Source: a virus
Lineage: Duplodnaviria; Heunggongvirae; Uroviricota; Caudoviricetes
Reading direction: 5' to 3' (one strand)
Virus record (IMG/VR): IMGVR_UViG_2571042372_000009
DNA length: 16,793 bases
Both the position numbers and the translations under genes were made by a program. The notes under the pieces are model-generated. The model saw only the letters and a program-made list of their open reading frames with translations, was not told the DNA's origin and searched no databases. Numbering within the stretch: the stretch's first letter is position 1; every line of letters begins with the position of its first letter. Below are positions 1-16,640 of the stretch, one piece after another.

Positions 1-1131
1 TCAAATGACCAGTTTTTTCCATTCCTTACCGCGTGCGTCGTTGTAAATATCGGTCATTTTTTGATTCGAATGGCCCAGCAAAATTTTGGTATCAACCCCC
101 TGCTCTCTGAACAATCGCTCTGATAAAGATCTCTGCTCATGGAAAGAGGGTGGGGTGCCATTAGCACGCCAGTTGTAATCCACAGAATCCCGGGCTTTTT
201 TAAATGCAACGGTTAATGTTGCTGGCTTAACCATCCCGCCGCGCTTAGCTGTCCCTTTCGCGTGATGGTGGTGCAATAGCCACGGACTAAGAACGCAATC
301 GCGGCAGGATGACACCACATCATCTAGGGTGAGATTTAATTTATCGCAACGCAGAGCCAGAGGGATGGCAATCCGGGTTCCTGTTTTTTGCTGTTCGACA
401 TGAAGATAACCATCCCGGATATCCGAAAATTGCATTTTGCAAATATCTGAAAGGCGCTGGCCTGTCATCAGTGCCAGCAGCATACCGCGCTGTAAAAAGT
501 AACCATCCTTTTCCGCTGCGTTATAAATCATCATCCACTCATCAAAAGTCAGTCGCTGTCTTGATATCCGCACCTGCGGTTTTTTTGCCGATTCTGCAGG
601 GTTAAAGCCTGGCGGGACATCGCCCGTTTGCTGAGCTTCCCGGAAAACATCGATCAGTACTTTCCTGAAAATTTGTCCCATTCTGTTATGTCCTCTGGCC
701 TTGTACTCTTCCAGTACTGATACCACATCTTTTACGGTTATGGCATCTAACGGTCTGGTGCCAAAACGTTCATCAAATACCCTGAGAGGGGCCGCTTTCT
801 GTTTCAGCGTGTTGAGTTTGATCTCGCCGTTTTCATATCTTTCCTGTTGAATTTTTCTGTAATTATTCAGAAAAATGGTAACGGTTGATGAACCGCCGGT
901 GTCACTAATAATTTTCTCCTGCAGACTGAGCATTTGTTCCATTTGCTGCCGGGCAAGACGGCTGTTCGCTTCTGCTGCAATAGTTTCTGCCAGTTTCTGG
1001 TCAATACTGCCGAGACCGTGATTTTTGCCTGTTATGGGATGCCTGTAACGCCAGTAAACTTTGTTATTTCTTTTGTCAAAATATGGAGATAATCCCGGAA
1101 CATCGGTTTTATATTTTCGCGGGCGCGCCAT
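1..1131 (-). CDS. int: Phage integrase, tyrosine recombinase (lambda Int family), 376 aa
   Basis: Full ORF with stop at 1-3. C-terminal ...LLGHSNQKMTDIYNDARGKEW... matches the conserved His/Tyr catalytic tail of lambda-family integrases. An excisionase-like ORF overlaps its start. Basis: sequence plus recalled family motif. Confidence 0.9.
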   Translation of the reverse strand: MARPRKYKTDVPGLSPYFDKRNNKVYWRYRHPITGKNHGLGSIDQKLAETIAAEANSRLARQQMEQMLSLQEKIISDTGGSSTVTIFLNNYRKIQQERYENGEIKLNTLKQKAAPLRVFDERFGTRPLDAITVKDVVSVLEEYKARGHNRMGQIFRKVLIDVFREAQQTGDVPPGFNPAESAKKPQVRISRQRLTFDEWMMIYNAAEKDGYFLQRGMLLALMTGQRLSDICKMQFSDIRDGYLHVEQQKTGTRIAIPLALRCDKLNLTLDDVVSSCRDCVLSPWLLHHHHAKGTAKRGGMVKPATLTVAFKKARDSVDYNWRANGTPPSFHEQRSLSERLFREQGVDTKILLGHSNQKMTDIYNDARGKEWKKLVI

Positions 1132-1357
1132 CTTCCAGTATCCTCTTCAAAGCAGGGTGATCTGTGGCGATCACCTCCGGCTTGTTTACCATTCCGACAA
1201 AGCGAGCTTGCGGATCCACTCGCCAGCGTCTTCCAACTTTTTTGGGGAGAGGAAATATCATTCCGGCTTTAGCGTATTTACTTAACGTACTCGGAGTAGG
1301 GACCGGTTCACTGAATTCCTCCTTTGTCCACTCAGTGAGCAGAATAAGTCTTGCCAT
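1109..1357 (-). CDS. xis: Excisionase (Xis-like), 82 aa
   Basis: Small ORF overlapping the int start by 23 nt on the same strand. LTEWTKEE...FPLPKKVGRRWRV resembles the winged-helix excisionase motif. Position is classic for int-xis. Confidence 0.75.
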   Translation of the reverse strand: MARLILLTEWTKEEFSEPVPTPSTLSKYAKAGMIFPLPKKVGRRWRVDPQARFVGMVNKPEVIATDHPALKRILEDGAPAKI

Positions 1358-1421
1358 GAGCGTCGTTCGCTAATCATGGTCGCCGCCACTATAGCTGGTG
1401 GGCAACGACCGGGGTTGAACA

Positions 1422-3893
1422 TTAAAAATCAGCCTGATTTGGGATCAGTTTTTGCCAGATAGCTGAAACGTATTTTGCCTGGTAACGGGCGTCATCAAGT
1501 GCATTATGGCGCTCACCTTCGAATGGAATAGCCGTTCTGGCATCGAAGTCTATGGCTTTCCCCAGCTCAACGATTGTGCGTACATCGCGATCGTTGTAGT
1601 AACGCCACGGGCAGGGGATCCCCTGCCGTTCGTATGAACGGCGCAAAATCGTGTTGTCGAAGTTGGCTCCATTTCCCCAAACCTGAACAAAAAATTCACC
1701 GGAGTTTTCGTCGATAAATTCCCGCAATTGTAACAGTGCATCATCTAACGGGATTTCATCGGTCATAATGGCAGATTGCGCTTCGCGTGATTGCTTAAGC
1801 CACCATTTAATGGTGTCCCGATCAATGACTCCGCCAGCAGTTTCCAGATCGATAGTCTTACTAAATTCCGGTCCCATATCTCCGGTTTGCGGATCGAAAA
1901 ATATTGCACCTATTGAGATGATCGGGGCATCAGGATTTTTTCCCATGGTTTCAAGGTCGATCATTAGATGGTCACACGTCCTGCTGGTGGATGTGATTTC
2001 GTGATGACCGTTCACCTTAATTGGGTGATCTGCCGTCTCGCCAGTTTCATTATCGCTATTGTGATGCTGATTGCCGCCAGTGTTCTCCTTGTGTGGATGT
2101 TCAGCGCCTTCCATTTCCTCCGGATCATCTTCCTGAACTTCAACCTGATACTCTTCATCGAATGTTTCTTGGTATGTTGCGTCGCCCATCACCGCGCCAC
2201 AATCAGGACAGTTGCCGCCGCCGGTCTGACCGCAGGCGGTGCAGGCTTTTTCCACTTCCTGGTGCGCCACTGGTTCAGGCTGTTTCGTTTCTGGCTCGTT
2301 TTGTAACGCATTTGGACTGTTTTGTTCCGCTTTTTGGTAGTTCCGTTCCGATTCATGCTGGTTCTGGCTCACAGAATCGCGGGTCTGGATCCCCTTAATC
2401 CATTTCGGATCATTCGGGTCACTAATCCCTTCAACAAATTCACCACGTGATGCAGCAAGCAACTTATCGGCGTCAGGCTGGCTGATATTGGCTGCCTGCA
2501 TAATTTTGTTTACTTCGTCAGCGGTAACTTTTATCGGCTCTGGTTGTTCTGAATCTTCAGCGGTATCTACATTTTGCGGTAAGCCCGTGTATGTGCCATT
2601 TTTTCGGGCAAAATATTCTTCTTTTGTGATTTCAGTGGCGCCAGCAGCCAGTGCCTTATCCAGACCAGAAAGTTTGTTTGCGCGACCGTATTTTTCTCCG
2701 TCCTTATCTGCGAAGAGGAAATAGAACGGCCCCTCACGCTCTACAGATGGTTCAGCTTCCGGCGCGGTTTCATTTTTTGGGATATCAGATACCTCAGTTT
2801 CCACTGCATCAGTTTGTGTTTCTGATGACTGGAGAACATCAACAGTGCCCAGGTCTGTTTCTTCATTCTCAAACACGCCCTTTGTCGTCAGGTATTCGCA
2901 GATATATTTGTTCAGTGCTACGGGATCTTTGTGAATGTCGATCGGACGCTCACGGACAAGGCCAAAAATAGTTTGGCGGTCGTAGCGAAGGGCATCAGGC
3001 TGTTTGCGCATTGATGCCGAGATACGCTTCCAGTCTTCGCGGTCGTTGTCGATAACTTCTTTTTTTGCCCAGCGATGGATGCTGCCGTCAATGTTTCCGG
3101 CATCCACATCACCAGGCCAGAGAGCGTAGGCCAGTTCGTCATCCAGTGTTTTCCATGTCTGCTTGTATTCGCGATGAATGGCAGCAATGACCGGGCTGAT
3201 TTTTCCTGTTGAATTTTCAGTGTACTGTTGATTGGCTCTGGCGCGGGCGAGATCAACAACAGACGTGTATTTTCCGGTTTCCTTGCGTTCACCTTCGCGA
3301 CGTTTTTTCCAGATGCGCATCTCTGCCTGAATTTCGGGCCATTTAGCACCAGGAATACATTTATGCTTAACCCACCCAATGGCGTGCAACTTAAGCTCCG
3401 GATACATGGCGTTAACTTCTGGCATTTTCATCAACGCTTCAACGATATGTCCGTCGAATGTTGCCATGTCTTCCTGCAACAATTCCTGTGCGCTAATAAC
3501 CATATCAACGGTGATGTTTTCACATGTGTCGAACTTAACCATGACAGCGTTCTGTACTTCAGGGGCCAGCTTGTCAAAAGTGACGTTCATCGGATCGGAT
3601 TCAGTCTCGACCGGAACAAAGGAAGCAGACGCCTCATCCCAGCGGTTTTCCTGCATATATTCAGCATCCCAGGAATCGAGGGCAGGGCGGGGTATACCGG
3701 GTTTATCCTCGCAAACAAGAAATTTATAAGCGCAGTCCTGAGCAGCCGGATAATGTTCCAGGAATTGCCAGTGAAATTTTGCGCGGGCGCGACGTTCATC
3801 ACCGGCTTCAATGGCAGTGGCTACAGCGACGGCACCTTCTTCCTTTATTGCCTGTTCGTCCGGAATGGCGGCGCAAATAAAGACTTTACTCAT
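1422..3893 (-). CDS. Large prophage exonuclease (DEDDh / DnaQ-like 3'-5' exonuclease C-terminal domain), 823 aa
   Basis: C-terminal region carries Exo I/II/III-like motifs (MIDLETMG; WGNGANFD; HNALDDARY). There is an internal acidic/Q-rich linker and a CxxC-x7-CxxC zinc-ribbon-like motif (CTACGQTGGGNCPDCG). SD-like GAGGT lies upstream of the ATG. It occupies the recombination/exo slot next to xis. Confidence 0.85.
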   Translation of the reverse strand: MSKVFICAAIPDEQAIKEEGAVAVATAIEAGDERRARAKFHWQFLEHYPAAQDCAYKFLVCEDKPGIPRPALDSWDAEYMQENRWDEASASFVPVETESDPMNVTFDKLAPEVQNAVMVKFDTCENITVDMVISAQELLQEDMATFDGHIVEALMKMPEVNAMYPELKLHAIGWVKHKCIPGAKWPEIQAEMRIWKKRREGERKETGKYTSVVDLARARANQQYTENSTGKISPVIAAIHREYKQTWKTLDDELAYALWPGDVDAGNIDGSIHRWAKKEVIDNDREDWKRISASMRKQPDALRYDRQTIFGLVRERPIDIHKDPVALNKYICEYLTTKGVFENEETDLGTVDVLQSSETQTDAVETEVSDIPKNETAPEAEPSVEREGPFYFLFADKDGEKYGRANKLSGLDKALAAGATEITKEEYFARKNGTYTGLPQNVDTAEDSEQPEPIKVTADEVNKIMQAANISQPDADKLLAASRGEFVEGISDPNDPKWIKGIQTRDSVSQNQHESERNYQKAEQNSPNALQNEPETKQPEPVAHQEVEKACTACGQTGGGNCPDCGAVMGDATYQETFDEEYQVEVQEDDPEEMEGAEHPHKENTGGNQHHNSDNETGETADHPIKVNGHHEITSTSRTCDHLMIDLETMGKNPDAPIISIGAIFFDPQTGDMGPEFSKTIDLETAGGVIDRDTIKWWLKQSREAQSAIMTDEIPLDDALLQLREFIDENSGEFFVQVWGNGANFDNTILRRSYERQGIPCPWRYYNDRDVRTIVELGKAIDFDARTAIPFEGERHNALDDARYQAKYVSAIWQKLIPNQADF

Positions 3894-3993
3894 TTTGTTT
3901 TACCTCATTACAGATTTAAGGGTGAACAAATCCCTGCCGGTGATGCTGCCAACTTACTGATTTAGTGTATGATGGTGTTTTTGAGGTGCTCCA

Positions 3994-4269
3994 GTGGCTT
4001 CTGTTTCTATCAGCTGTCCCTCCTGTTCAGCTACTGACGGGGTGGTGCGTAACGGCAAAAGCACCGCCGGACATCAGCGCTATCTCTGCTCTCACTGCCG
4101 TAAAACATGGCAACTGCAGTTCACTTACACCGCTTCTCAACCCGGTACGTACCAGAAAATCATTGATATGGCCATGAATGGCGTTGGATGCCGGGCAACT
4201 GCCCGCATTATGGGCGTTGGCCTCAACACGATTTTACGTCACTTAAAAAACTCAGGCCGCAGTCGGTAA
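3994..4269 (+). CDS. insA: IS1 InsA (transposition inhibitor / N-terminal part of InsAB' transposase), 91 aa
   Basis: [23 protein letters not shown]... zinc-finger N-terminus characteristic of IS1 InsA; lies inside the IS1 boundaries. Confidence 0.9.
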
Positions 4270-4691
4270 CCTCGCGCATACAGCCGGGCAGTGACGTCAT
4301 CGTCTGCGCGGAAATGGACGAACAGTGGGGCTATGTCGGGGCTAAATCGCGCCAGCGCTGGCTGTTTTACGCGTATGACAGTCTCCGGAAGACGGTTGTT
4401 GCGCACGTATTCGGTGAACGCACTATGGCGACGCTGGGGCGTCTTATGAGCCTGCTGTCACCCTTTGACGTGGTGATATGGATGACGGATGGCTGGCCGC
4501 TGTATGAATCCCGCCTGAAGGGAAAGCTGCACGTAATCAGCAAGCGATATACGCAGCGAATTGAGCGGCATAACCTGAATCTGAGGCAGCACCTGGCACG
4601 GCTGGGACGGAAGTCGCTGTCGTTCTCAAAATCGGTGGAGCTGCATGACAAAGTCATCGGGCATTATCTGAACATAAAACACTATCAATAA
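4188..4691 (+). CDS. insB: IS1 InsB (expressed as InsAB' transposase by -1 frameshift), 167 aa
   Basis: Overlaps the insA 3' end in the -1 frame downstream of the A-run slippery site; length and position as in IS1. Confidence 0.85.
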
Positions 4692-4706
4692 GTTGGAGTC
4701 ATTACC

Positions 4707-5159
4707 GAGAAAGATGATGTCTACATAGCCAATTGTATAGAAAAAGGTAAGACTGAATTTAAAGTAAGCAAAGATATTGCTGCGTTGCCTTTCAAGGGTG
4801 AACCCATCGAGAAAATTAGGGGAGAGCTAATCAGGTCAATCAAGGAACACTTGATCAGTGCAAGCTGGCATAGCACTAAAAAGGTAATCGACCGCTATGA
4901 AGCTACATTCGATATAAAAGTACAAAAAGACTGTCCGATAGAAGCTATTGAATTGGCAACCCTCAATCGAAATCACTTAGTGCATCGTGGTGGAAAGGAT
5001 AAAGAAGGGAACCTCGTAGTGATTACAGACCAGGATCTTGAAACGCTGATTGAAAATGCATCGAACCTGGCAATTATGCTCTACAACAGTTTAAATGTAG
5101 CAACGAATAAAACCACCATTTTGCAACCAGATGACAAACCGTTCATTCATGAATTTTAA
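4707..5159 (+). pseudogene. 5'-truncated ORF interrupted by IS1; product carries a HEPN-like R-x4-H motif (RNHLVH)
   Basis: The reading frame is open from the IS1 right end to TAA at 5157-5159 with no in-frame ATG/GTG. The first possible start is TTG at 4785 with no SD. Motif ...IEAIELATLNRNHLVHRGG... (R codon at 4968-4970, H codon at 4983-4985). Visibly AT-rich relative to flanking phage genes. Confidence 0.5.
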
Positions 5160-5174
5160 TAGCGCAGGTCATAC

Positions 5175-6176
5175 ATGGATATTCGCACACGAAAGACAAA
5201 ATTTTTAGAGTCGTTAGATTCAACTGAAGTGATACGCAAAGCAGTAAGTCTCGCTATAGATTGCATTATTGATAATCATAATAGTAATGAAGATACCCCC
5301 TTAGTTATTACCAGCTATGATGATCTCTGTAGAATCCAGGTGCTAAATTATGTACAGGAGTTTTGCGAAGCTGCATTCCCTGATATGGATGAATATTACT
5401 TTAGTCCTAACATACTTCGCATCAACGGCAAGACTAGTGAAGAAGCTTGTATTAACTTAATTAAACTCTTAAGAAGTACAAAAGGCATGCTATTCTGGTC
5501 CGATGCCCCATCGTGGTTCGCTAGCCTCCCCGACGGATTATTCCATGTTGTTAACATTGATCAAAAAATCGTTACTCGCGGCCTTAATAAGAAAAACTCT
5601 AAGCCGACAATAATCAATAAAGATTACAGTGTAGATACACTACTATCAGAGCTATTTTTGAATGGCGCACACATGGAGCAACCCAACGTACACAACGTTT
5701 CTGAGGGAAACATGAAGTTCTATGATGAATGCCATGCTGGATTAATCAGACCAATACCCGCTCCAATAGGCGCGTCATACGATGAAGAGATCACAATTAA
5801 TTCTCCAGATTGGCAAAAGCTCGCGTGTGTAGCTTTACGCCGCTATCAGTCGAAGGAATGTCATGACGGAATGCAATGGGATACAACCGATCATGGTTGG
5901 ACTGATGTAATCGCGTATCCATTCGTCGAAGAAATACAATCAATGGATAATAGTGGTTATCGACAATGTTTAGTTGGGCTGGTCACAATAAACAATTCAA
6001 ATGCAAATTCTCCGTACCTATCTACCGTTTGGATACATCCATTTTATCGCAGGAGAGGGTTATTAAGTAAGTTATGGCCAAAATTACAAGAGTTATATGG
6101 AAGTAACTTCGAAATTGAGCGACCTAATGAAAATATGAAAGCATTTCTGAAAAGTGCGAAACACGCAGATTACTAA
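5175..6176 (+). CDS. Hypothetical protein, 333 aa, C-terminal GNAT-like acetyltransferase-fold motif
   Basis: ATG at 5175 lies 15 nt after the upstream stop, with AGGT upstream. AT-rich codon usage. C-terminal ...VWIHPFYRRRGLLSKLW... resembles GNAT motif A (h-x-P-x-Y-R-x-x-G-h-x-x-x-L), and NENMKAFLKSAKH resembles motif B. The N-terminal about 170 aa is unassigned. Confidence 0.7.
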   Translation: MDIRTRKTKFLESLDSTEVIRKAVSLAIDCIIDNHNSNEDTPLVITSYDDLCRIQVLNYVQEFCEAAFPDMDEYYFSPNILRINGKTSEEACINLIKLLRSTKGMLFWSDAPSWFASLPDGLFHVVNIDQKIVTRGLNKKNSKPTIINKDYSVDTLLSELFLNGAHMEQPNVHNVSEGNMKFYDECHAGLIRPIPAPIGASYDEEITINSPDWQKLACVALRRYQSKECHDGMQWDTTDHGWTDVIAYPFVEEIQSMDNSGYRQCLVGLVTINNSNANSPYLSTVWIHPFYRRRGLLSKLWPKLQELYGSNFEIERPNENMKAFLKSAKHADY

Positions 6177-6492
6177 TTTATGAATCAGTCTGTGGAGTTA
6201 GGGTTGGTGTCAACAAGTAGGGTAAGAGCCTCAACGTGATGCTATGCCGACCTGCTCCCTGAGAATTCACACAGAAGGCTGCTAGCAATGTCTGCAGATC
6301 GCTCAAAGCGGACTAGAAGGTTAGCTTGCGTCGGACTTGGCGTATTTAAAGAAGTGCTGGTGGTGACTGGTTGTTGTGTTCCATTTCTACAGAACAAAAT
6401 CACAGAAACTATACCCAATAGTTATATTGAATCAATGATGAGACAGCCTCATATTTATCAGAACTGGTGTACGTCCAATACAGGAGGTTGTC

Positions 6493-6582
6493 GTGCTGGT
6501 TCTCAAATGTGCGCTAGCTATTGCGGCTGTAATGGCAATTTATTGTCTTGCTGTTGTTCTTATGGATCGCCTTTCTGATTGA
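6493..6582 (+). CDS. Candidate small hydrophobic peptide, 29 aa (GTG start)
   Basis: Consensus SD AGGAGG at 6483-6488, four nt before GTG. Product VLVLKCALAIAAVMAIYCLAVVLMDRLSD is one predicted transmembrane helix. A possible TTGAAT-17-CATATT promoter lies upstream. Not in the ORF track because it is under 60 aa. Confidence 0.3.
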   Translation: MLVLKCALAIAAVMAIYCLAVVLMDRLSD

Positions 6583-6636
6583 TTTTATATTGGCGAGGTG
6601 ACGGGAGTTAAGTAGAATTGCTGCGGGTGCTTGAGG

Positions 6637-6672
6637 CTATCTGCCTCAGGCATGAACACCAAAGGCAGATAG
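6637..6672 (+). promoter_or_regulatory. Perfect 10-bp inverted repeat (CTATCTGCCT ... AGGCAGATAG) in the hok/mok leader
   Basis: Arms at 6637-6646 and 6663-6672 with a 16-nt spacer. Candidate hok mRNA fold-back or antisense-target element, or a protein operator. Confidence 0.4.
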
Positions 6673-6793
6673 AGAAAAGCCCCAGTTAATATTACGCGTC
6701 CTGCAAGACGCTTAACATTAATCTGAGGCTCAATCTATGAACGGCAAATCTAGGTTAGCCTCTTACGTGCCGAAAGGCAAGGAGAAGCAGGCT

Positions 6794-6949
6794 ATGAAGC
6801 AGCAAAAGGCGATGTTAATCGCCCTGATCGTCATCTGTTTAACCGTCATAGTGACGGCACTGGTAACGAGGAAAGACCTCTGCGAGGTACGAATCCGAAC
6901 CGGCCAGACGGAGGTCGCTGTCTTCACAGTTTACGAACCTGAGGAGTAA
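6794..6949 (+). CDS. hokD: Hok/Gef family type I toxin (HokD/RelF-like), 51 aa, nested in the mok frame that starts at 6737
   Basis: MKQQKAMLIALIVICLTVIVTALVTRKDLCEVRIRTGQTEVAVFTVYEPEE matches the Hok/Gef family as recalled. The overlapping upstream in-frame extension (70-aa ORF from 6737) is mok-like. A stable 3' hairpin follows. Confidence 0.85.
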   Translation: MKQQKAMLIALIVICLTVIVTALVTRKDLCEVRIRTGQTEVAVFTVYEPEE

Positions 6950-7019
6950 GAGACCCGGCGAGGGAGAAATCCCTCGCCACCTCTGATGTGTCAGGCATCC
7001 TCAACGCACCCGCACGTAA

Positions 7020-7044
7020 CCCGCTTCGGCGGGTTTTGTTTTTT
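7020..7044 (+). terminator. Intrinsic terminator downstream of hok
   Basis: CCCGC-ttcg-GCGGG hairpin followed by TTTTGTTTTTT. Confidence 0.7.
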
Positions 7045-7116
7045 CCTGGCATTCTGGTTTACAATTCGCACGCCAGCCTGAACAACTGGCACCTGCTGCG
7101 CCAGCAGAGACAACCG

Positions 7117-7395
7117 ATGGCGCACGATACCAAATTACACAATTCTGATGATTCTGCCGTCTTTGCCAGCAGGCACGGGCGGCGTTCCCGCACTTTCAAA
7201 TCTGACTGGTTCCAGCATCCCCCATGCACTGAAGAACAGGCCGAGTGGCTAATTCAGTGCTACCGCAGACACGGATACGAGATTAAGAAAGCCCTCAGCC
7301 TCGATTATCGTCACTGGATAATCTCCGTCAGGCTTCCTTACTCCGAACGATCACCGCGTCCGTCCCGCACATTCCAGCAACGCATCTGGAGGTAA
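7117..7395 (+). CDS. Hypothetical protein, about 92 aa; positional analogue of rem in Qin-type prophages
   Basis: First ATG downstream of the hok terminator in the 6988-7395 frame. Its stop TAA at 7393-7395 lies just before the GTG start of the next gene. No motif recognised. Confidence 0.4.
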   Translation: MAHDTKLHNSDDSAVFASRHGRRSRTFKSDWFQHPPCTEEQAEWLIQCYRRHGYEIKKALSLDYRHWIISVRLPYSERSPRPSRTFQQRIWR

Positions 7396-7396
7396 C

Positions 7397-8443
7397 GTGC
7401 GAGTATTACTTCGACCTGTTCTGGTACCGGAACTCGGGCTGGTGATCGTTAAGCCGGGCCGTGAATCCATGCCGGTATTCCACAATACCCGGGTACTGGT
7501 GGAGCCGGAACCGAAAAGCATGCGTAATCTGCCGTCCGGGGTTGTTCCTGCCGTTCGCCAGCCGCTAGTGGAAGACAAAACATTGCTGCCGTTTTTCAGT
7601 AACGCACGGGTGATTCGTGCTGCTGGTGGTGCTGGTGCATTGTCTGACTGGCTGTTGCGCCATATTAAATCCTGCCAGTGGCCACACGGCGATTATCATC
7701 ACAGCGAAACCGTCATTCACCGTTATGGTACCGGCGCAATGGTGTTGTGCTGGCACTGCGACAACCAGCTGCGTGACCAGACATCCGAATCACTCGAGCA
7801 ACTTGCTCATCAAAACCTGTCAGCATGGATGATTGACGTCATACTCCATGCAATGAATGGCTCGCAGGAACGGGAATTATCGCTGGCTGAATTATCCTGG
7901 TGGGCGGTCCGCAATCAGGTGGCGGACGCGCTACCGGAAGCGGTATTACGTCGTTCGCTGGGGTTGCGTGCGGAAAAAATCCGCTCAATGTACCGTGAAA
8001 GCGACATCGTACCGGGAGAGCAGACCGCCACCAGCATACTGAAGCAGCGCACAAAAAATCTTGCGCCGCTGCCTCACGCCCACCAGCAAAACCCGCCACA
8101 GGAAGAGACGGTGGTCAGCATTGCCGTTGATCCTGAGTCTCCGGAATCTTTCATGAAACGACCTAAACGTCGCCGCTGGGTTAACGAGAAATACACACGC
8201 TGGGTGAAGACACAGCCGTGTGCGTGTTGTGGTAAGCCAGCCGACGATCCCCATCACCTGATTGGTCATGGTCAGGGCGGAATGGGGACAAAATCTCACG
8301 ATATTTTCACGCTACCGCTGTGTCGGGAGCATCACAACGAGCTTCATGCGGATCCTCTGGCGTTCGAAGAAAAGCATGGTTCTCAGGTTGATTTAATTTT
8401 TCGTTTTCTTGATCACGCCTTTGCAACTGGCGTGCTTGGGTAA
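7397..8443 (+). CDS. DUF968-like prophage protein (YdfU-like), 348 aa
   Basis: GTG start coupled to the upstream stop, with GGAGG upstream. Cys/His-rich C-terminus (CACCGKPADDPHHLIGHG...CREHHNELH). Lies immediately upstream of rusA-Q, as recalled for DUF968 genes in lambdoid prophages. Confidence 0.7.
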   Translation: MRVLLRPVLVPELGLVIVKPGRESMPVFHNTRVLVEPEPKSMRNLPSGVVPAVRQPLVEDKTLLPFFSNARVIRAAGGAGALSDWLLRHIKSCQWPHGDYHHSETVIHRYGTGAMVLCWHCDNQLRDQTSESLEQLAHQNLSAWMIDVILHAMNGSQERELSLAELSWWAVRNQVADALPEAVLRRSLGLRAEKIRSMYRESDIVPGEQTATSILKQRTKNLAPLPHAHQQNPPQEETVVSIAVDPESPESFMKRPKRRRWVNEKYTRWVKTQPCACCGKPADDPHHLIGHGQGGMGTKSHDIFTLPLCREHHNELHADPLAFEEKHGSQVDLIFRFLDHAFATGVLG

Positions 8444-8455
8444 AAGAGGTGACTG

Positions 8456-8830
8456 ATGCTCATAGATTTGGTTTTACCTTACCCGCCGACGGTGAACACT
8501 TACTGGCGACGCCGTGGCAGCACATATTTTATCTCGGAGGAGGGAAAGCGTTATCGCCGGGCTGTGGCGCTTATTGTTCGCCAGCAGCGGCTGAAATTAA
8601 GCCTGTCCGGAAGGCTGGCGATAAAGGTGATTGCAGAGCCACCGGATAAGCGTCGTCGCGACCTGGACAATATCCTGAAAGCACCGCTGGATGCGCTGAC
8701 GCATGCGGGAGTGTTAATGGACGATGAGCAGTTTGATGAAATCAATATCGTTCGTGGTCAGCCAGTATCTGGTGGACGTATGGGGGTGAAGATTTACCCC
8801 ATAATGCATGAAGAGCAGGTCAAAAAATGA
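8456..8830 (+). CDS. rusA: Holliday junction resolvase RusA, 124 aa
   Basis: SD AAGAGGTGA upstream of the ATG. Conserved PDKRRRDLDN motif as in the RusA family. Stop overlaps the next start (ATGA). Confidence 0.9.
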   Translation: MLIDLVLPYPPTVNTYWRRRGSTYFISEEGKRYRRAVALIVRQQRLKLSLSGRLAIKVIAEPPDKRRRDLDNILKAPLDALTHAGVLMDDEQFDEINIVRGQPVSGGRMGVKIYPIMHEEQVKK

Positions 8831-9648
8831 AACTGGAAGATTTACCGAAATACTACTCCCCAAAATCCCCTGGCCTGACCGATGCATCGGCCTCAACGTC
8901 AAAAGATGCGCTGAGTATCACTGATGTGATGGCCGCGCAGGGCATGACACAGAATCGGGCTGAGATGGGGTTTTCTGCGTTCCTGGGGAAAATGGGCATC
9001 AGTATGAATGACAGGGCGCGGGCAACAGAATTACTGGCAGATTATGCACTCAGTCGGTGCGATCGTGTGGCGGCGTTGAGAAAACTTCCGGCAGAAATAA
9101 AACCGGTAGTGATGCGCATTATGGCTTCGTATGCGTTTGAAGATTATGCCCGTAGCGCGGCGAGCAAAAAACAGTGCCCTTGCTGTCACGGAAAAAAATT
9201 TATTGAAAGCGAGGTTTTTACAAACAAGATCCAGTATCCGGATGGTAAGCCACCAGTGTGGGCAAAGTGCACAAAAGGCGTGTATCCGTCTTACTGGGAA
9301 GAATGGAAAAAAGTCAGGGAGGTGGTAAAAGTTGCCTGTCCGGAGTGTGGCGGAAAGGGTGAGGTTTCCACCGCCTGTAAGGATTGCCGTGGGCGTGGTG
9401 TCGCCATTCATCGTGAAGAGTCGGTAAAACGTGGTATGCCTGTTATCAGAGATTGCCAGCGTTGTGGTGGTCGTGGCTGTGAAAGGCTGCCATCAACGGA
9501 GGCATTTAATGCCATATGCAAAGTGACGAGTGCTATCACGCTTGATACGTGGAAAAAATCAGTGAAACGCTTTTACGATACGTTGGTGGTTCGGTTTGAC
9601 ATTGAAGAGGCATGGGCGGAGCGGCAGTTAAAGAGGGTAACGCGATAG
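8827..9648 (+). CDS. Late-gene antitermination protein Q (phage 82/Qin QuuQ-like), 273 aa
   Basis: N-terminal LPKYYSPKSP and multiple CxxC zinc-binding motifs (CPCCHGKK, CPECGGKGEVSTACKDCRGRG). Followed directly by a lambda-like pR'-tR' pair. Confidence 0.8.
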   Translation: MKLEDLPKYYSPKSPGLTDASASTSKDALSITDVMAAQGMTQNRAEMGFSAFLGKMGISMNDRARATELLADYALSRCDRVAALRKLPAEIKPVVMRIMASYAFEDYARSAASKKQCPCCHGKKFIESEVFTNKIQYPDGKPPVWAKCTKGVYPSYWEEWKKVREVVKVACPECGGKGEVSTACKDCRGRGVAIHREESVKRGMPVIRDCQRCGGRGCERLPSTEAFNAICKVTSAITLDTWKKSVKRFYDTLVVRFDIEEAWAERQLKRVTR

Positions 9649-9653
9649 TGTTG

Positions 9654-9681
9654 TTGATTTTTCCCGAATCTGTGGTAAATT
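9654..9681 (+). promoter_or_regulatory. Late promoter pR'-like (TTGATT - 16 nt - TAAATT) with qut-like initial transcribed region
   Basis: The -10 and downstream TGCTCTAACGATGGG closely resemble recalled lambda pR' (TAAATT TGACTCAACGATGGG). Immediately downstream of Q. Confidence 0.65.
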
Positions 9682-9728
9682 TGCTCTAACGATGGGCGTT
9701 TTATGCCTGACGTTAGAAGATTTTTTAC

Positions 9729-9754
9729 ACCCCGCCGCCTGGCGGGTTTTTTAT
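9729..9754 (+). terminator. tR'-like intrinsic terminator
   Basis: CCCGCC-gcct-GGCGGG hairpin followed by TTTTTTAT, about 65 nt downstream of the predicted pR' start. Confidence 0.75.
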
Positions 9755-9872
9755 GACTGAAATCGCGTCAGTACAGTAAACGCGCTGGTGGCGGTGAATA
9801 CCTGTCTTTCAGCTTGCTGGCTTTTTCGACAAGAGTTATTGGTGTGTCACGTTAACCGGAAAAGGAAAAGAC

Positions 9873-10070
9873 ATGCTAAAACAGCAGGATATGACAGAAA
9901 CCGCCAGAGTGGTGTTTAATGAATTAAGCGTTACCGACCCGGCGACAGTCGGGGAGATAGCGCAGAATACTTACCTTTCACGCGAACGCTGCCAGTTAAT
10001 ACTGACTCAGCTGGTTATGGCGGGTCTGGCAGACTATCAGTTCGGTTGTTACAGACGCCTTCCGCAGTGA
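9873..10070 (+). CDS. Small hypothetical protein with winged-helix/HTH-like segment, 65 aa
   Basis: SD AGGA six nt upstream of the ATG. ...TVGEIAQNTYLSRERCQLILTQLVMAGL... looks like a recognition-helix region. The stop is embedded in a terminator hairpin. Confidence 0.5.
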   Translation: MLKQQDMTETARVVFNELSVTDPATVGEIAQNTYLSRERCQLILTQLVMAGLADYQFGCYRRLPQ

Positions 10071-10082
10071 AGGCTTTTTTAT
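10057..10082 (+). terminator. Intrinsic terminator
   Basis: GCCTTC-cgcagt-GAAGGC hairpin followed by TTTTTTA. Confidence 0.7.
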
Positions 10083-10220
10083 TTGTGGTAAATGGGCGGC
10101 TGGTGGGTGTTAGGGGCACCCACCAGCCATCTGCTCATGCGTCCGGATCACAAGCAAACCTCAGGCCCACTGCTTTGCGCAAAAGCAGAATGAGCCTATC
10201 AGAGACAGGCTTAATGATCC

Positions 10221-11270
10221 ATGCTTAATACTGTAAAAATATCCAGTTGTGAGTTAATCAACGCCGACTGCCTGGAATTTATCCGGTCGTTACCCGAAAA
10301 TTCTGTTGACCTGATAGTCACGGACCCGCCGTACTTTAAAGTGAAGCCTGAGGGCTGGGATAACCAGTGGAAGGGCGACGATGATTACCTGAAGTGGCTG
10401 GACCAGTGTCTGGCGCAGTTCTGGCGGGTGCTGAAACCTGCCGGAAGTCTTTACCTGTTCTGTGGTCATCGCCTGGCATCTGATATCGAAATCATGATGC
10501 GTGAACGCTTCAGTGTGCTGAACCATATTATCTGGGCGAAGCCGTCCGGACGCTGGAACGGATGCAACAAGGAAAGGCTGCGGGCGTATTTCCCCGCCAC
10601 AGAGCGCATTCTGTTCGCGGAACATTATCAGGGGCCGTATCGTCCGAAAGATGCCGGGTATGCGGCGAAGGGCAGTGCACTGAAACAGCATGTGATGGCC
10701 CCGCTGATTTCTTACTTTCGTGATGCGCGCGCGGCCCTGGGGATAACGGCAAAACAGATTGCAGATGCCACAGGAAAGAAAAACATGGTGTCGCACTGGT
10801 TCAGTGCCAGTCAGTGGCAGCTACCGAATGAAAGCGATTATCTGAAATTACAGGCGCTGTTTGCCCGGGTGGCAGAAGAGAAGCATCGGCGTGGTGAACT
10901 GGAAAAGCTCCACCACCAGCTGGTGGATACGTATACCTCACTGAACCGGCAGTATGCGGAGCTGCTGAGTGAATATAAACATCTGCGGCGGTATTTTGGC
11001 GTGACGGTGCAGGTGCCGTATACCGATGTGTGGACGCATAAACCGGTGCAGTTCTATCCCGGGAAACATCCGTGCGAAAAACCGGCAGAAATGCTGCAGC
11101 AGATAATCAGCGCAAGTAGCCGTCCTGGTGATCTGGTTGCGGATTTTTTCATGGGGTCGGGTTCAACGGTAAAAGCGGCGATGGCACTGGGGCGTCGTGC
11201 GATTGGTGTTGAGCTGGAGACCGGACGTTTTGAGCAGACAGTCAGGGAAGTTCAGGATTTAATCGTTTGA
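10221..11270 (+). CDS. Orphan DNA amino-methyltransferase, beta class (N6-adenine or N4-cytosine; DPPY motif), 349 aa
   Basis: Motif IV DPPY near the N-terminus (LIVTDPPYF) and motif I FxGxG near the C-terminus (DLVADFFMGSGSTVKAA). No restriction endonuclease partner in the window. No clear SD. Confidence 0.9.
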   Translation: MLNTVKISSCELINADCLEFIRSLPENSVDLIVTDPPYFKVKPEGWDNQWKGDDDYLKWLDQCLAQFWRVLKPAGSLYLFCGHRLASDIEIMMRERFSVLNHIIWAKPSGRWNGCNKERLRAYFPATERILFAEHYQGPYRPKDAGYAAKGSALKQHVMAPLISYFRDARAALGITAKQIADATGKKNMVSHWFSASQWQLPNESDYLKLQALFARVAEEKHRRGELEKLHHQLVDTYTSLNRQYAELLSEYKHLRRYFGVTVQVPYTDVWTHKPVQFYPGKHPCEKPAEMLQQIISASSRPGDLVADFFMGSGSTVKAAMALGRRAIGVELETGRFEQTVREVQDLIV

Positions 11271-11319
11271 AACGGATGAGATTGCAGAATTAATTACGCA
11301 CCATTATTATTCTGCTCCC

Positions 11320-11395
11320 GGCCCTTTAGCTCAGTGGTGAGAGCGAGCGACTCATAATCGCCAGGTCGCTGGTTCAAATCCAGCAAGGGCCACCA
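11320..11395 (+). tRNA. tRNA with CAU anticodon (Ile2/lysidine type or Met), 76 nt
   Basis: Manual fold: acceptor GGCCCTT/AAGGGCC, D-arm GCTC/GAGC, anticodon loop CTCATAA, T-loop TTCAAAT, 3' CCA encoded. Resembles ileX/ileZ-type genes as recalled. Confidence 0.85.
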
Positions 11396-11402
11396 TCACA
11401 TA

Positions 11403-11479
11403 CCGCCATTAGCTCATCAGGAAAGAGCGCCAGCCTTCGAAGCTGGTTGCGCGGAGTTCGGGTCCCCGAAGGCGGTCCA
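11403..11479 (+). tRNA. tRNA-Arg (UCG anticodon), atypical, 77 nt
   Basis: Manual fold: anticodon stem CCAGC/GCTGG with loop CTTCGAA. One acceptor-stem mismatch (A6/A67), one T-stem mismatch, and T-loop TTCGGGT with G at the usually conserved A58 position. CCA encoded. Confidence 0.6.
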
Positions 11480-11492
11480 TTATCTGTATCCT

Positions 11493-11569
11493 GCGTTGTT
11501 AGCTCAGCCGGACAGAGCAATTGCCTTCTAAGCAATCGGTCACTGGTTCGAATCCAGTACAACGCGCCA
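11493..11569 (+). tRNA. tRNA-Arg (UCU anticodon), 77 nt
   Basis: Manual fold: perfect acceptor stem GCGTTGT/ACAACGC, anticodon stem ATTGC/GCAAT with loop CTTCTAA, T-loop TTCGAAT, CCA encoded. Confidence 0.85.
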
Positions 11570-11584
11570 CACTTATTTTCCCTG

Positions 11585-11608
11585 GCTCGCTTTTGCGGGC
11601 TTTTTTTT
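11585..11608 (+). terminator. Intrinsic terminator after the tRNA cluster
   Basis: GCTCGC-tttt-GCGGGC hairpin (one G-U pair) followed by T8. Confidence 0.65.
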
Positions 11609-11614
11609 AAATGT

Positions 11615-11830
11615 CTCACAATTCAGGCGGTTGACTGTTGTCTGGTTTGCGGGGAGTTTGTTAAAAGAAACTGGCATGGTGAATCCCCCTGTGCGGAGGG
11701 GCAATCAGCGAGTAGGTATATGGGATAATCGCGGATTCAGGTGCTGGTACTGAATTCACCGGGAGGCACCCGGCACCATGCAATGGCACATAGCGCCACT
11801 CTCCAGCCCCTCTCCGGAGGGGCTTTTCTG
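11615..11830 (+). ncRNA. Candidate structured noncoding RNA module, copy A
   Basis: Begins just after a terminator with CTCACAATTCAG...TTGACT. Contains three hairpins (CCCCCT-gtgcgg-AGGGG; CCGGG-aggca-CCCGG; GCCCCTC-tccg-GAGGGGC followed by TTTTCT). The same architecture recurs in copy B while the ORFs are not conserved. Confidence 0.4.
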
Positions 11831-12082
11831 TGCCGGATACATCACAGTTTCTGGAACCTTAGGTACTACAGTATCAGTCAGGGTGCTATATTTTCAGATG
11901 TGATGAAAGCCTGTCAGCAGGCAGGGCGTATCGGAAATGACCCAGTAGAGAAAACGTTGACTCAGATACCGGTGCTGAGTTACCGGGAAACCGGCATCAC
12001 ATGACCGCTATCCTTCCAGGCCCATCCGCTCCGGTGGGCCTTTTTACTGCAGAAAACAGGTTCCCCGTTAAATGCTATGTTG

Positions 12083-12317
12083 CTCACAATTCAGTAAGTT
12101 GACAGTTGCCTGTCAGACTGGGCATTTGTTAAAAAAATTTCGCATGGTGAATCCCCCTGAGCGGAGGGGCGACTGGTGACGGTATAATCTCTGATTATCA
12201 AAACGAGAATGACGCGGGTTTAGTGGCACCGGGCTGAACTCACCGGGAGGCACCCGGCACCATGTGCATGATGATACAGATACGCGGCTTTAGCCCCTCT
12301 CCGGAGGGGTTTTCTTG
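12083..12317 (+). ncRNA. Candidate structured noncoding RNA module, copy B (divergent paralogue of copy A)
   Basis: CTCACAATTCAG...TTGACA start, the same three hairpins with conserved stems, and a terminal GCCCCTC-tccg-GAGGGG + TTTTCTT terminator. Preceded by another terminator (GGCCCA...TGGGCC + T5 at about 12019-12045). Confidence 0.4.
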
Positions 12318-12544
12318 TGGGCAAAAAAAGCCCGCGCTGGGAGACGCGGGCGGCAAGGAATAAACAATAAAACGTGAAGTAATATTTCAGCTGGCGAATA
12401 ATACCCCATAGTAATCACTCTGCGCAACTGCGCGGTCTTTTTCGAATTGCGGGCTGTCGTCTCTCTTCTGCCATTGTCCTGTAACTTCCGGACTTCAGCC
12501 CGCTCCTTATTTTACTCACAATATTATCCCGGCCGGGAGGATTC

Positions 12545-12772
12545 ATGGCATTTAAACACTATGACGTGGTCAGGGCGGTATCGCCGTCAGACCTTGCGAA
12601 ACGACTGACACAAAAACTGAAGGAGGGCTGGCAGCCGTTTGGTAGTCCGGTGGCCATAACCCCTTATACCCTGATGCAGGCGATTGCAGCAGAAGGTGAT
12701 GTGGTGGTCAGTGGTGCAACTGAGCCGGATTGGTACTACGTCATCGTACTGGCCCGGCATTCCAGGCCATAA
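12545..12772 (+). CDS. Small conserved-looking hypothetical phage protein, 75 aa
   Basis: Strong SD GGGAGG five nt upstream of the ATG. Located just upstream of the holin gene. Confidence 0.6.
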   Translation: MAFKHYDVVRAVSPSDLAKRLTQKLKEGWQPFGSPVAITPYTLMQAIAAEGDVVVSGATEPDWYYVIVLARHSRP

Positions 12773-13040
12773 AAGACAGTCTGGCAGTGGGACTAAATGC
12801 ACTGACGCTGATGGATATTACCAAAAATGTAACGTATGGCGTTGAGATAGAAAGTCTGGCGCTGGAGATAAATGCACCGGCATCATCATAAAAAGTGAGC
12901 CAGTCAAATGGAAGGTATCGTTAAACTCACCGGTAGTGTCAGTGGGTCGTCTGAGACGCTTGCATGAGTTATCAGAGCCATCAGTAGTTAACTGGTGGCT
13001 TTTTTATTGTTTTCAGCTTCCGGATAACGGGAGACGGGGT

Positions 13041-13256
13041 ATGGACCAGATGGAAAAAATCACAACAGGTGTGTCATACACCACGTCAGCGGTGGGAACG
13101 GGCTACTGGTTCCTGCAGTTGCTGGACAGGGTTTCCCCGTCTCAGTGGGCGGCAATAGGCGTGCTGGGGAGTCTGCTGTTTGGGCTGCTGACATATCTGA
13201 CTAACCTGTATTTCAAAATCAGAGAGGACCGTCGTAAGGCGGCACGGGGAGAGTAA
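13041..13256 (+). CDS. S: Holin, class II pinholin (phage 21 S-like), 71 aa with dual-start motif
   Basis: MDQMEK... gives Met1 and Met4 starts (71 and 68 aa), as recalled for S21. Two hydrophobic segments and a charged C-terminus [13 protein letters not shown]. Followed by a SAR endolysin. Confidence 0.85.
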
Positions 13257-13260
13257 TTCA

Positions 13261-13605
13261 ATGACTCAAAACTATGAACTGATTGTGAAAGGGATCCGCA
13301 ATTTTGAGAATAAAGTTACGGTAACTTTAGCATTACAGGACAAAGAACGCTTTGACGGTGAAATTTTTGACCTGGACATCTCGCTGGACCGTGTTGAAGG
13401 TGCTGCGCTGGAGTTTTATGAGGCAGCGGCCAGAAGGAGCATCAGACAGGTCTTCCTGGATGTCGCTGCCGGGTTATGTGAAGGGGATGAGCAGTCGCCG
13501 GAAAAGCGCCCCGTAATTTTAGAGGCGCAGAATGTATGGATAACCTACAAAGGAAAGCTACCGGGAAGGATTACTGGTTCCCTGAAGACTCCGCCGAAAT
13601 GGTAG
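13261..13605 (+). CDS. Hypothetical protein between holin and endolysin (YdfR/DUF1327-like by position), 114 aa
   Basis: ATG four nt after the holin stop, with GGGAGAG upstream. Naming is from recall of the essQ-ydfR-rrrQ arrangement and is tentative. Confidence 0.55.
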   Translation: MTQNYELIVKGIRNFENKVTVTLALQDKERFDGEIFDLDISLDRVEGAALEFYEAAARRSIRQVFLDVAAGLCEGDEQSPEKRPVILEAQNVWITYKGKLPGRITGSLKTPPKW

Positions 13606-13843
13606 TTTTGCCAGCATAATTTTCTTCCAGCAATGCCGCCAGCCACTTGAAAGAATTTTGTTGTTCCTGGGACCATTTGGGGTTGCGTGATTCAAAATGA
13701 ATGGATGCCAGCGTTGGCAGCATTTGCTCCCTGGGAATTGATAAGGCCAGATGTGAAAATGCAACAGTGAGGGCATTTACATCATCCCGAAGCCTGGAAA
13801 TGCAGTCGAGCAACTCCTGTAGAGAAATGGTGCTATTGTCCAT
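13571..13843 (-). CDS. Hypothetical protein, 90 aa, convergent with and overlapping the 3' end of the previous gene
   Basis: Good SD (AAGAGGA) upstream of the ATG on the minus strand. Helical-looking product. Overlaps 13571-13605 of the plus-strand ORF, so one of the two may be spurious. Confidence 0.35.
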   Translation of the reverse strand: MDNSTISLQELLDCISRLRDDVNALTVAFSHLALSIPREQMLPTLASIHFESRNPKWSQEQQNSFKWLAALLEENYAGKTTISAESSGNQ

Positions 13844-13948
13844 AAATAATCCTCTTGATTGTCTTTACCTTTTCCCCGCCTGATTCAACAGGCCGGGACA
13901 GATAAACATATCCAGGGTTCAGAAACCGATAAATCCTGATAAATATCC

Positions 13949-14482
13949 ATGAACGCAAAAATCAAATACGGCCTGTCAGCTGCAGTTCTGGCGCTGATTG
14001 GAGCAGGCGCATCAGCTCCTCAGATACTTGACCAGTTTCTGGATGAAAAAGAGGGTAACCACACTACGGCATACCGCGATGGTTCCGGCAACTGGACCAT
14101 CTGTCGGGGGGCCACGATGGTGGATGGAAAACCCGTTTTTCCCGGTATGAAACTGTCGAAGGAAAAATGCGACCAGGTCAACGCCATTGAGCGTGATAAG
14201 GCGCTGGCATGGGTGGAGAAAAACATCAAAGTGCCATTGAGCGAACCCCAGAAAGCGGGGATCGCGTCATTCTGTCCGTACAACATTGGTCCCGGTAAGT
14301 GTTTCCCGTCGACGTTTTATAAACGAATTAATGCAGGTGATCGCAGGGGAGCGTGTGAGGCGATTCGCTGGTGGATTAAGGACGGTGGCAGAGACTGCCG
14401 TATTCGTTCAAACAACTGCTACGGTCAGGTATCCCGTCGTGACCAGGAGAGCGCGCTGGCGTGCTGGGGTATCGACAGATAA
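13949..14482 (+). CDS. R: SAR endolysin (T4-lysozyme-like muramidase, phage 21 R-like), 177 aa
   Basis: N-terminal signal-anchor-release segment KYGLSAAVLALIGAGASAP and catalytic E-x8-D-x5-T triad (EGNHTTAYRDGSGNWT). Confidence 0.9.
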   Translation: MNAKIKYGLSAAVLALIGAGASAPQILDQFLDEKEGNHTTAYRDGSGNWTICRGATMVDGKPVFPGMKLSKEKCDQVNAIERDKALAWVEKNIKVPLSEPQKAGIASFCPYNIGPGKCFPSTFYKRINAGDRRGACEAIRWWIKDGGRDCRIRSNNCYGQVSRRDQESALACWGIDR

Positions 14483-14575
14483 GCAGAATATTTTGCTGAA
14501 AAATAAGGCATGGCCACGCGGGCGGATAACATGAAATCCTGCGAAGTGGCGAAACGTAAGTGAATAAAAGTAAAA

Positions 14576-14610
14576 ACCCCGTTTGTTGGCACCAAGCGGG
14601 GTTTTGTGTT
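14576..14610 (+). terminator. Putative intrinsic terminator after the endolysin gene
   Basis: ACCCCG...CGGGGT hairpin with a long loop, followed by TTTTGTGTTT. Confidence 0.45.
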
Positions 14611-14680
14611 TCCTGACTCCGGAAAAGTCAAAGGAGAAAGTGTGTTTGATTTTAGCAAACTGATTCGGGAGATTCGAGTG

Positions 14681-14779
14681 ATGGCTGAAAAATTATCCAC
14701 CTGGAAGTTCATTCTTATCTGGCTGGTGTTTGTGATTATGGCCTCTGGTTATTTCATCGGTCAGATACGCTGGTGGTGA
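14681..14779 (+). CDS. Candidate small membrane peptide, 32 aa, between endolysin and Rz
   Basis: ATG with GGGAG nine nt upstream. Product [32 protein letters not shown] is one transmembrane helix. Its stop TGA is followed one nt later by the Rz ATG (TGAAATG). Under 60 aa, so absent from the ORF track. Confidence 0.35.
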
Positions 14780-14780
14780 A

Positions 14781-15978: not shown

Positions 15979-16020
15979 GTGATATGAGGGGGGGTAGTCT
16001 GCACGATTATCTAAATTGCT

Positions 16021-16616: not shown

Positions 16617-16640
16617 TTGTATTTGATAATGGGTTGTTCT

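Follow-up and report, generated by a model that had tools for sequence, protein, structure and literature searches.

An IS1 element marking a 5,506-bp internal deletion that removed the immunity and replication genes of a lambdoid prophage at ompW in Escherichia coli

Qin, Rac, and DLP12 of E. coli K-12 are defective lambdoid prophages, and IS629 erodes the prophages of O157. IS1 prefers AT-rich DNA in its choice of target. Adjacent deletions mediated by IS1 were reportedly described by Reif and Saedler in 1975, and Turlan and Chandler (1995) and the model of Grindley and Sherratt are said to treat such adjacent deletions as replicative or abortive events.

A simple insertion of IS1 creates a duplication of 8–9 bp (PMC12428005). 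An insertion sequence without a duplication has two standard causes, namely adjacent deletion and recombination between two IS copies (PMC11708052). In a long-term evolution experiment, all 14 of the 14 traced cases of an IS combined with a deletion had arisen by insertion followed by an adjacent deletion (PMC11708052). Duplication-less movement of an IS coupled to rearrangement has also been proposed, from laboratory observations on IS5 and IS481 (PMC11708052). In the clinical E. coli studied by Wan et al. (2023), IS1 deletions covered 11–66 kb, with one end fixed at IS1 and the other end at variable points within genes (PMC10569738).

In this study, the window (the whole stretch of 16,793 nucleotides of the IMG/VR record IMGVR_UViG_2571042372_000009) was identified as the left two-fifths of a lambdoid prophage of ~42 kb integrated at ompW. 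Like Qin, Rac, and DLP12, this prophage has lost essential early functions and has kept int/xis, hok/sok, Q, and the lysis genes. The block that it lacks is a Qin-type one (dicB, DicF, and ydfABCD). In contrast to those three prophages, its loss amounts to only 5.5 kb, and the set of head and tail genes is still complete. The intact prophage at the ompW site of E. coli ATCC 11775 is 99.95–99.98% identical to it outside the deletion, and the window has an IS1 in place of a 5,506-bp module. The features in common with the IS1 adjacent deletions of clinical isolates (PMC10569738) were a complete IS1 at the junction, no duplication, one end at an IS1 terminus, the other end inside a coding sequence, and a size in the kilobase range. 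The difference from those cases is that the event was rebuilt here by comparison with a relative, from which we infer the fixed end and the mechanism.

The IS1 element and its flanks

The IS1 of the window is an IS1A-like element of 768 bp at positions 3939–4706 on the plus strand. Its terminal inverted repeats lie at 3939–3961 (IRL, on the exonuclease side) and 4684–4706 (IRR). Both reading frames are open and on the plus strand: insA (3994–4269, 91 aa) contains the Pfam domains Zn_ribbon_InsA and HTH_Tnp_IS1, and the insB' frame (4188–4691, 167 aa) contains DDE_Tnp_IS1 with an E value of 5.9e-78. The A6C frameshift motif AAAAAAC was found at 4245–4251, where a −1 frameshift fuses insA to insB'. 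The length, the imperfect terminal inverted repeats of ~23 bp, and the insA/insB' frames with the A6C motif are those of the IS1A type of the IS1 family. Only 2 of the 768 positions differ between K-12 IS1A and this element. In genomes with identical junctions, PGAP labels the element 'IS1-like element IS1A family transposase, programmed frameshift'.

The first-pass annotation had described a complete IS1 with differing 9-bp flanks, its left end 45 bp upstream of the exonuclease start and its right end inside an ORF. It had assigned these features to 3894–4715, a range that runs from the 45-bp spacer across the IS1 to the end of the 9-bp right flank. The completeness of the element was borne out by its 768 bp, its two inverted repeats, and its open insA and insB' frames. 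The left flank is ATCCCTGCC (3930–3938) and the right flank is GAGAAAGAT (4707–4715); only 1 of the 9 positions is the same in both, and re-inspection revealed no 9-bp repeat. Direct repeats of at least 9 nt, and offset or shorter repeats bracketing the IS1, were also searched for, and none were found. Thus, the 8–9-bp target duplication on both sides that marks a simple IS1 insertion is missing from the element in the window. As a positive control, strain 94EC carries an IS1 140 bp upstream of a homologous exonuclease gene, with a perfect 9-bp duplication (AACTTTATC) and without an associated deletion.

The placement of both ends also agreed with the earlier description. The start codon of the exonuclease gene is at 3893 on the minus strand, and the spacer between it and the IS1 is 45 bp long (3894–3938). 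On the right side, a remnant on the plus strand at 4707–5159 (150 codons and a stop) represents the 3' part of a 320-aa gene (phrog_17908). By tblastn, positions 4707–5156 corresponded to residues 171–320 of the 320-aa protein at 100% identity. PGAP calls this remnant 'incomplete; missing N-terminus', a pseudogene. The full 320-aa gene is at 13047–14009 of the ATCC 11775 stretch that was compared.

The deleted block and the retained genes

Each flank of the IS1 was used as a separate query in a search of 5,426 complete E. coli genomes. In the E. coli type strain ATCC 11775 (NZ_CP033092.2), both flanks were 100% identical to the queries (~540 bp each), on the same strand, and 5.5 kb apart. ATCC 11775 and the window contain the same lambdoid prophage, integrated beside ompW. 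Prophages at the ompW site are labelled 'PPompW' in record LC567818. In the alignment, window positions 1–3938 matched ATCC 11775 at 99.95% identity (3,938 bp) and positions 4707–16793 at 99.98% (12,088 bp), and the two parts were collinear. ATCC 11775 has exactly 5,506 bp where the window has IS1. Collinear flanks on the same strand, with extra DNA between them in an undeleted relative, are the pattern of an IS-associated deletion. The IS1 of the window therefore marks the point at which 5,506 bp have been deleted from within the prophage.

The end points were located to the base. The left breakpoint is after position 3938, the last base of ATCCCTGCC, and the right breakpoint is before position 4707, the first base of GAGAAAGAT. 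In ATCC 11775, ATCCCTGCC is followed directly by ATTGCTGG at the left junction, and TTCTATA is followed directly by GAGAAAGAT at the right junction. The ATCC 11775 sequence past the left breakpoint runs on as ATTGCTGGCATATAAG… into ydfD. The GC content within ±50 bp was 35% at the left breakpoint and 31% at the right one, and both sites are AT-rich.

The genes of the lost block were assigned by annotation, Pfam, PHROG, and Rfam, and are given here from the exonuclease side. The block begins with ydfD (DUF1482) and dicB, followed by the DicF sRNA (Rfam, 76.7 bits), a small ORF, and then ydfC, ydfB, and ydfA. The next gene encodes a cI-like repressor of 212 aa with HTH and Peptidase_S24 domains, in an ORF that starts from the ATG at 16549 of the ATCC 11775 stretch. 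A P22-Cro-like gene is divergent from the repressor gene. It is followed by a YdaT/cII-like gene (phrog_163), a gene for an O-like replication initiator of 356 aa with a DnaD-like loader domain (phrog_3729 and phrog_1701), and a DUF977/Ren-like gene. The block ends with the first 170 codons of the 320-aa gene. In the annotation of ATCC 11775, PGAP calls the cI-like repressor as 112 aa; the longer ORF encodes 212 aa.

In deposited phage genomes, regions annotated as cI, cII, and replication protein O were 97–99% identical to the lost block. Phages with a matching immunity and replication module were Escherichia phage 204576, vB_EcoS-813R8, Tritos, and Evi. When the 12 proteins of the lost block were searched against the window by tblastn, only the C-terminal remnant matched, and the next best hit had an E value of 0.045. 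The 11 fully deleted proteins were without a match in the window, and DicF was also absent from the window by Rfam.

The first-pass annotation had proposed that a deletion at the IS1 removed the early, immunity, and replication regions, and had suggested whole-genome alignment to a related intact prophage as a check. ATCC 11775 is such a relative, and its 5,506-bp block holds the regions in question. It had also reported that the interval from the exonuclease gene to DUF968 lacks ORFs for a repressor, cro, cII, or replication; likewise, the family search (Pfam and PHROG) found no ORF there that matched the repressor, Cro, cII, or replication families. Its list of lost genes was correct in part. 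The repressor, Cro, the cII-like protein, and a replication initiator were recovered in the block, and bet, gam, N, and P were not. The lost genes are of the Qin/P22 type, and nothing shows that bet, gam, N, or P was ever present.

The retained left end of the prophage is formed by three genes on the minus strand. The lambda-type tyrosine integrase (1–1131, 376 aa; Pfam Arm-DNA-bind_1 and Phage_integrase) marks the prophage end, and ompW lies immediately outside it in the genomes with identical junctions. The excisionase gene is at 1109–1357 (82 aa; Pfam Exc, E value of 3.4e-7). The prophage exonuclease gene (1422–3893, 823 aa) encodes a protein with an Rv2179c-like 3'-5' exonuclease domain (Pfam) and a full-length match to phrog_2082. 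It is the last surviving gene of the early-left operon and is now separated from the upstream part of that operon.

The genes to the right of the IS1 are on the plus strand. The truncated gene is followed by its partner, an intact 333-aa gene (5175–6176; phrog_16994) of unknown function. For the pair as a whole, Pfam gave only sub-threshold hints of function and PADLOC gave nothing. A hok/sok type I toxin-antitoxin locus is at 6625–6949 (Rfam sok, 113 bits), with the hokD coding sequence at 6794–6949 as annotated in FDAARGOS_1301, a genome with identical junctions. The retained nin/late-control region at 7397–9648 contains DUF968, RusA, and antiterminator Q (8827–9648; Pfam DUF968, RusA, and Antiterm). 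A DNA methyltransferase gene (10221–11270; Pfam N6_N4_Mtase, PADLOC MTase_II) and three tRNA genes (11320–11569; ARAGORN) follow. The lysis cassette is at 13041–15245 (Pfam Phage_holin_2_1, DUF1327, Phage_lysozyme, and Phage_lysis). It consists of a class II holin, YdfR/DUF1327, an intact lysozyme gene (13949–14482), and Rz (14781–15245).

The retention of hok, the methyltransferase, the tRNAs, and the lysis genes had been noted earlier, and hok/sok, the methyltransferase gene, the holin, lysozyme, and Rz genes, and the three tRNA genes were found to be intact. The earlier view that int-xis-exo had been joined to a cargo block was not upheld: the gene pair, hok/sok, and DUF968-rusA-Q are native to this prophage and stand in their original order. 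Repressor and replication genes just outside the window, which had been considered as a sign that the prophage is intact, were not found there. In FDAARGOS_1301, the remainder of the prophage consists of terminase, head, and tail genes up to a partial copy of ompW (attR), and no second immunity or replication module is annotated in this part, up to attR.

Distribution of the junctions and origin of the deletion

Both IS1 junctions, always together, were found in 4 of the 5,426 complete genomes: FDAARGOS_1301 (USA), B20123 (Irish seawater), AH20K059 (Australia), and AHB12 (UK). There were 0 differences among the four genomes over 23.3 kb spanning chromosome, prophage, and IS1. Outside the IS1, the four genomes were identical to the window (16,025 bp of flanks). 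The right flank was present in 209 genomes, of which 205 carry the uninterrupted 320-aa gene, so an intact gene at the right junction is the usual state. The adjacent 544 bp of the deleted segment was present in 205 genomes, and the difference of 4 is made up by the junction-bearing genomes. Since the counts of 209 and 205 differ by exactly 4, the junction genomes lack the deleted segment genome-wide, and relocation of the 5.5 kb to another place in the genome was ruled out. This evidence from counts is indirect; it indicates that the missing DNA is absent from the four genomes and has probably been neither translocated nor inverted. A second IS1 with a matching half-duplication elsewhere in the genome, which the first-pass annotation had suggested looking for, is not expected for a deletion, and the counts show DNA that is absent, not moved.

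The interior of the IS1 was compared between the window and the four genomes. Six sites differ, all within 4200–4382. The substitution 4150T (relative to K-12 IS1A) is common to the window and the four genomes, and is unique to them among the seven IS1 copies compared. To this the window IS1 adds 4200T, and the IS1 of the four genomes adds a five-site patch (4295–4382) identical to a divergent type of IS1. The simplest reading is that all are the same IS1 copy by descent and that one lineage may have received a gene-conversion tract; the difference could also stem from a polishing artefact in one of the assemblies. With K-12 IS1A as reference, two independent crossovers between a pair of non-identical IS1 copies could also give the six-site difference, and were considered less economical. 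On the basis of 0 differences in 23.3 kb and the shared IS1 substitution 4150T, the deletion is a single event inherited in one clone.

An IMG/VR contig (IMGVR_UViG_2576861205_000011) was identical to window positions 1–7986 over all bases compared, including the IS1 interior. It was dropped as an independent confirmation, because full identity means that it probably comes from the same source as the window.

These data also bear on the idea that no deletion took place, in which the window would be ancestral and its relatives would have gained a 5.5-kb module, or the assembly would have collapsed two IS1 copies. In favour of this idea, module exchange does occur among lambdoid phages, short-read assemblers have difficulty with IS1 repeats, and the IS1 interior of the window differs from that of the complete genomes. 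However, the gene at the right junction is N-terminally truncated in the window and intact in 205 genomes, and the flanks are ~99.95–99.98% identical to the undeleted relative right up to both breakpoints. Moreover, four independently sequenced complete genomes from four countries have identical junctions and lack the segment genome-wide. Therefore, both an ancestral state and an artefact are effectively refuted.

An adjacent deletion by a single resident IS1 is the mechanism considered most probable, with a probability of roughly 0.6. In this scheme, ordinary transposition would first have placed one IS1 at either the present left junction or the present right one, both of which are AT-rich. 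In a later intramolecular (or abortive) transposition, one end of this IS1 would have been linked to a target close by in the same chromosome, and the intervening DNA would have been discarded together with one of the two 9-bp repeats made by the original insertion. The product would be a complete IS1 between unrelated flanks. This route is favoured by the documented behaviour of IS1, the small number of IS1 copies in three of the four junction genomes, and the AT-rich breakpoints. An IS1 with a duplication at only the left or only the right site was not found in the 5,426 complete genomes, IMG/VR, or the JGI metagenomes; as no such one-site ancestor appeared in the collections searched, which sample this lineage thinly, the route with one IS1 is preferred on priors.

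Alternatively, two IS1 copies in the same orientation, each with its own 9-bp duplication, may have inserted independently at the left and right junctions, and RecA-dependent recombination between them may have removed the 5.5 kb and one IS1. This predicts the exact product that was observed, with the left flank from one copy and the right flank from the other, and, together with adjacent deletion, it is a standard cause of an absent duplication (PMC11708052). Both sites are AT-rich, as expected from the established target preference of IS1. Signs of sequence exchange with other IS1 copies were also seen, in that the window and the four genomes differ in a central region of 183 bp of the element, and differing crossovers between two non-identical IS1 copies could give this difference too. 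However, the central patch is explained more simply by one gene-conversion tract (4295–4382) and one substitution. Neither two directly repeated IS1 copies at both end points nor one copy with its duplication was found in the complete genomes, IMG/VR, or the JGI metagenomes. The IS1 copy number was only ~3–6 in three of the four junction genomes, and with so few copies, two independent insertions in the same orientation within 5.5 kb are less likely a priori. Recombination between two copies was considered less likely than the adjacent deletion, and is its main rival.

It could also be supposed that the arrival of IS1 and the loss of 5.5 kb occurred in a single duplication-less event, with no IS1 resident at either end before. 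The collections searched contained no intermediate of any kind, and the possibility of such events was raised in PMC11708052. However, for a clone present in only 4 of 5,426 genomes, missing intermediates are weak evidence. Such a mechanism has not been established for IS1, and the natural IS1 cases compared all fit adjacent deletion from a resident copy (PMC10569738). This origin is very improbable; if true, it would be an IS1 example, from a natural isolate, of IS movement coupled to rearrangement.

Three other lineages were found with an IS1 without duplication beside a homologous exonuclease gene and with different downstream joins, a signature like that of the window, which also speaks for adjacent deletion. 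Their IS1 copies are different variants, with 26–42 differences. In strain 3045, which has the same ompW prophage, IS1 is 25 bp upstream of the exonuclease gene and is joined directly to the tail gene J region. In NT1N31, the prophage is next to ynfA/rspAB; its IS1 lies 66 bp upstream of the exonuclease gene, and the join leads into a truncated gene that precedes DUF977. In 23CRST007, also at the ynfA/rspAB site, IS1 is in dicB and joined to a truncated flxA-like gene. The possibility of an IS1 hot spot upstream of the exonuclease gene, driving convergent disabling of prophages, was examined over 7,436 copies of the region. Within ~650 bp upstream of the exonuclease gene, 11 IS1 in the same orientation and 4 in the opposite orientation were counted, and ~13 were expected from a genome-wide density of roughly 13 per 5 Mb. 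With ~15 observed vs. ~13 expected there was no enrichment, and the hot-spot idea was rejected. The recurrence therefore reflects how common IS1 and IS1-linked deletions are.

State of the prophage

The gene content suggests how the deletion would affect transcription of the remaining genes. On the left side, exo-xis-int appear to be cut off from the early-left promoter. On the right side, early-right transcription, which normally extends to Q, appears no longer to reach Q or the late and lysis genes. The divergent repressor/Cro region is gone, and by analogy it would have held the early promoters and operators. A consensus scan, which is weak evidence, for an outward promoter from IS1 found only the element's own inward promoter in IRL. 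The loss also includes dicB, DicF, and ydfD, whose annotated functions are cell-division inhibition and lysis.

An inducible lambdoid prophage has a repressor/Cro region and a replication initiator, and here the initiator is absent as well. With the initiator lost and the early promoters probably gone too, the prophage should be able neither to replicate nor to enter a lytic cycle alone. From its gene content, it is predicted to be non-inducible. Helper prophages could supply the lost functions in trans. In AHB12, an IS3 has since been acquired in the holin gene, which is further decay.

IS1-mediated deletion and IS-driven decay of prophages are already well known, and the result is nothing new in kind; knowledge of IS1 or of prophages is unchanged by it. 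The prophage represents an early-stage defective lambdoid prophage in which the cause of decay can be read precisely. The base-exact reconstruction describes how one IS1 event turned a near-complete temperate phage into a prophage that is likely unable to go lytic. It is useful for annotating a clone found in four countries and provides a worked example of early prophage decay.

Sequence differences within IS1

The IS1 copy in the window was compared with the IS1 copies at the identical junctions in the four complete genomes of the clone. Six substitutions were found, all between window positions 4200 and 4382, and the flanks of the element were identical in the window and in all four genomes. 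At five of the six sites (4295–4382), the four complete genomes agreed with a divergent IS1 type. The pattern points to gene conversion between IS1 copies, or to an assembly or polishing artefact.

Cassette and repressor genes

A cassette of two genes, encoding a 320-aa phrog_17908 protein and a 333-aa phrog_16994 protein, occupied window 4707–6176, and the full pair was located at 12030–14009 in the undeleted ATCC 11775 relative (L001). The first gene (phrog_17908) was cut short by the IS1 event. The cassette was bordered by replication genes on one side and by hok on the other. It was carried by just 209 of the 5,426 complete E. coli genomes. Pfam gave only sub-threshold hints for the pair, HEPN_RES_NTD1 (E 1.9e-4) and GNAT (E 9e-4), and PADLOC returned no convincing match for the cassette.

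The repressor of the ATCC 11775 prophage (L001 16549–17187) was annotated by PGAP as a 112-aa "LexA family protein" with an S24 domain only. The ORF starting from an upstream ATG was 212 aa; since it included the HTH domain, the repressor looks full length.

tRNA, sRNA and lysis genes

The tRNA gene with a CAT anticodon at window 11320–11395 was called tRNA-Met by ARAGORN and tRNA-Ile by PGAP. The tRNA-Ile call agrees with the ileZ-argN-argO-type tRNA cluster familiar in lambdoid phages. Rfam gave two strong matches to the STnc100 sRNA family, at window 11645–11835 (136 bits) and 12113–12322 (161 bits). Both lay in the stretch that separates the tRNA cluster from the holin gene, amid pseudogene fragments (DUF1737).

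The window and all four genomes that carry the two junctions had an intact lysozyme gene (window 13949–14482). In the record of ATCC 11775, one additional G was present at window ~14105, and the gene was annotated there as a frameshifted rrrQ. In AHB12, a member of the clone, an extra IS3-family element was present within the holin gene (L006 ~23316–24626, corresponding to window ~13101), a second IS strike on the same prophage.

Target duplications and recurrent IS1-linked loss

The reference IS1A of K-12 MG1655, between nhaR and rpsT (L012 797–1564), was flanked by GTAATTGCT and TACCTCAAT, also without a 9-bp duplication. Therefore, the absence of a duplication is not unusual among resident IS1 copies. 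Three independent IS1 copies, likewise without target duplication, were found 25 bp (strain 3045, L007 7131–7898), 66 bp (NT1N31, L008 7171–7938) and 408 bp (23CRST007, L009 7513–8280) upstream of homologous exonuclease genes. The downstream joining point differed in each, and in strain 3045 it was the tail gene J region. Early-region loss linked to IS1 is recurrent, at a frequency not above that predicted from genome-wide IS1 density.
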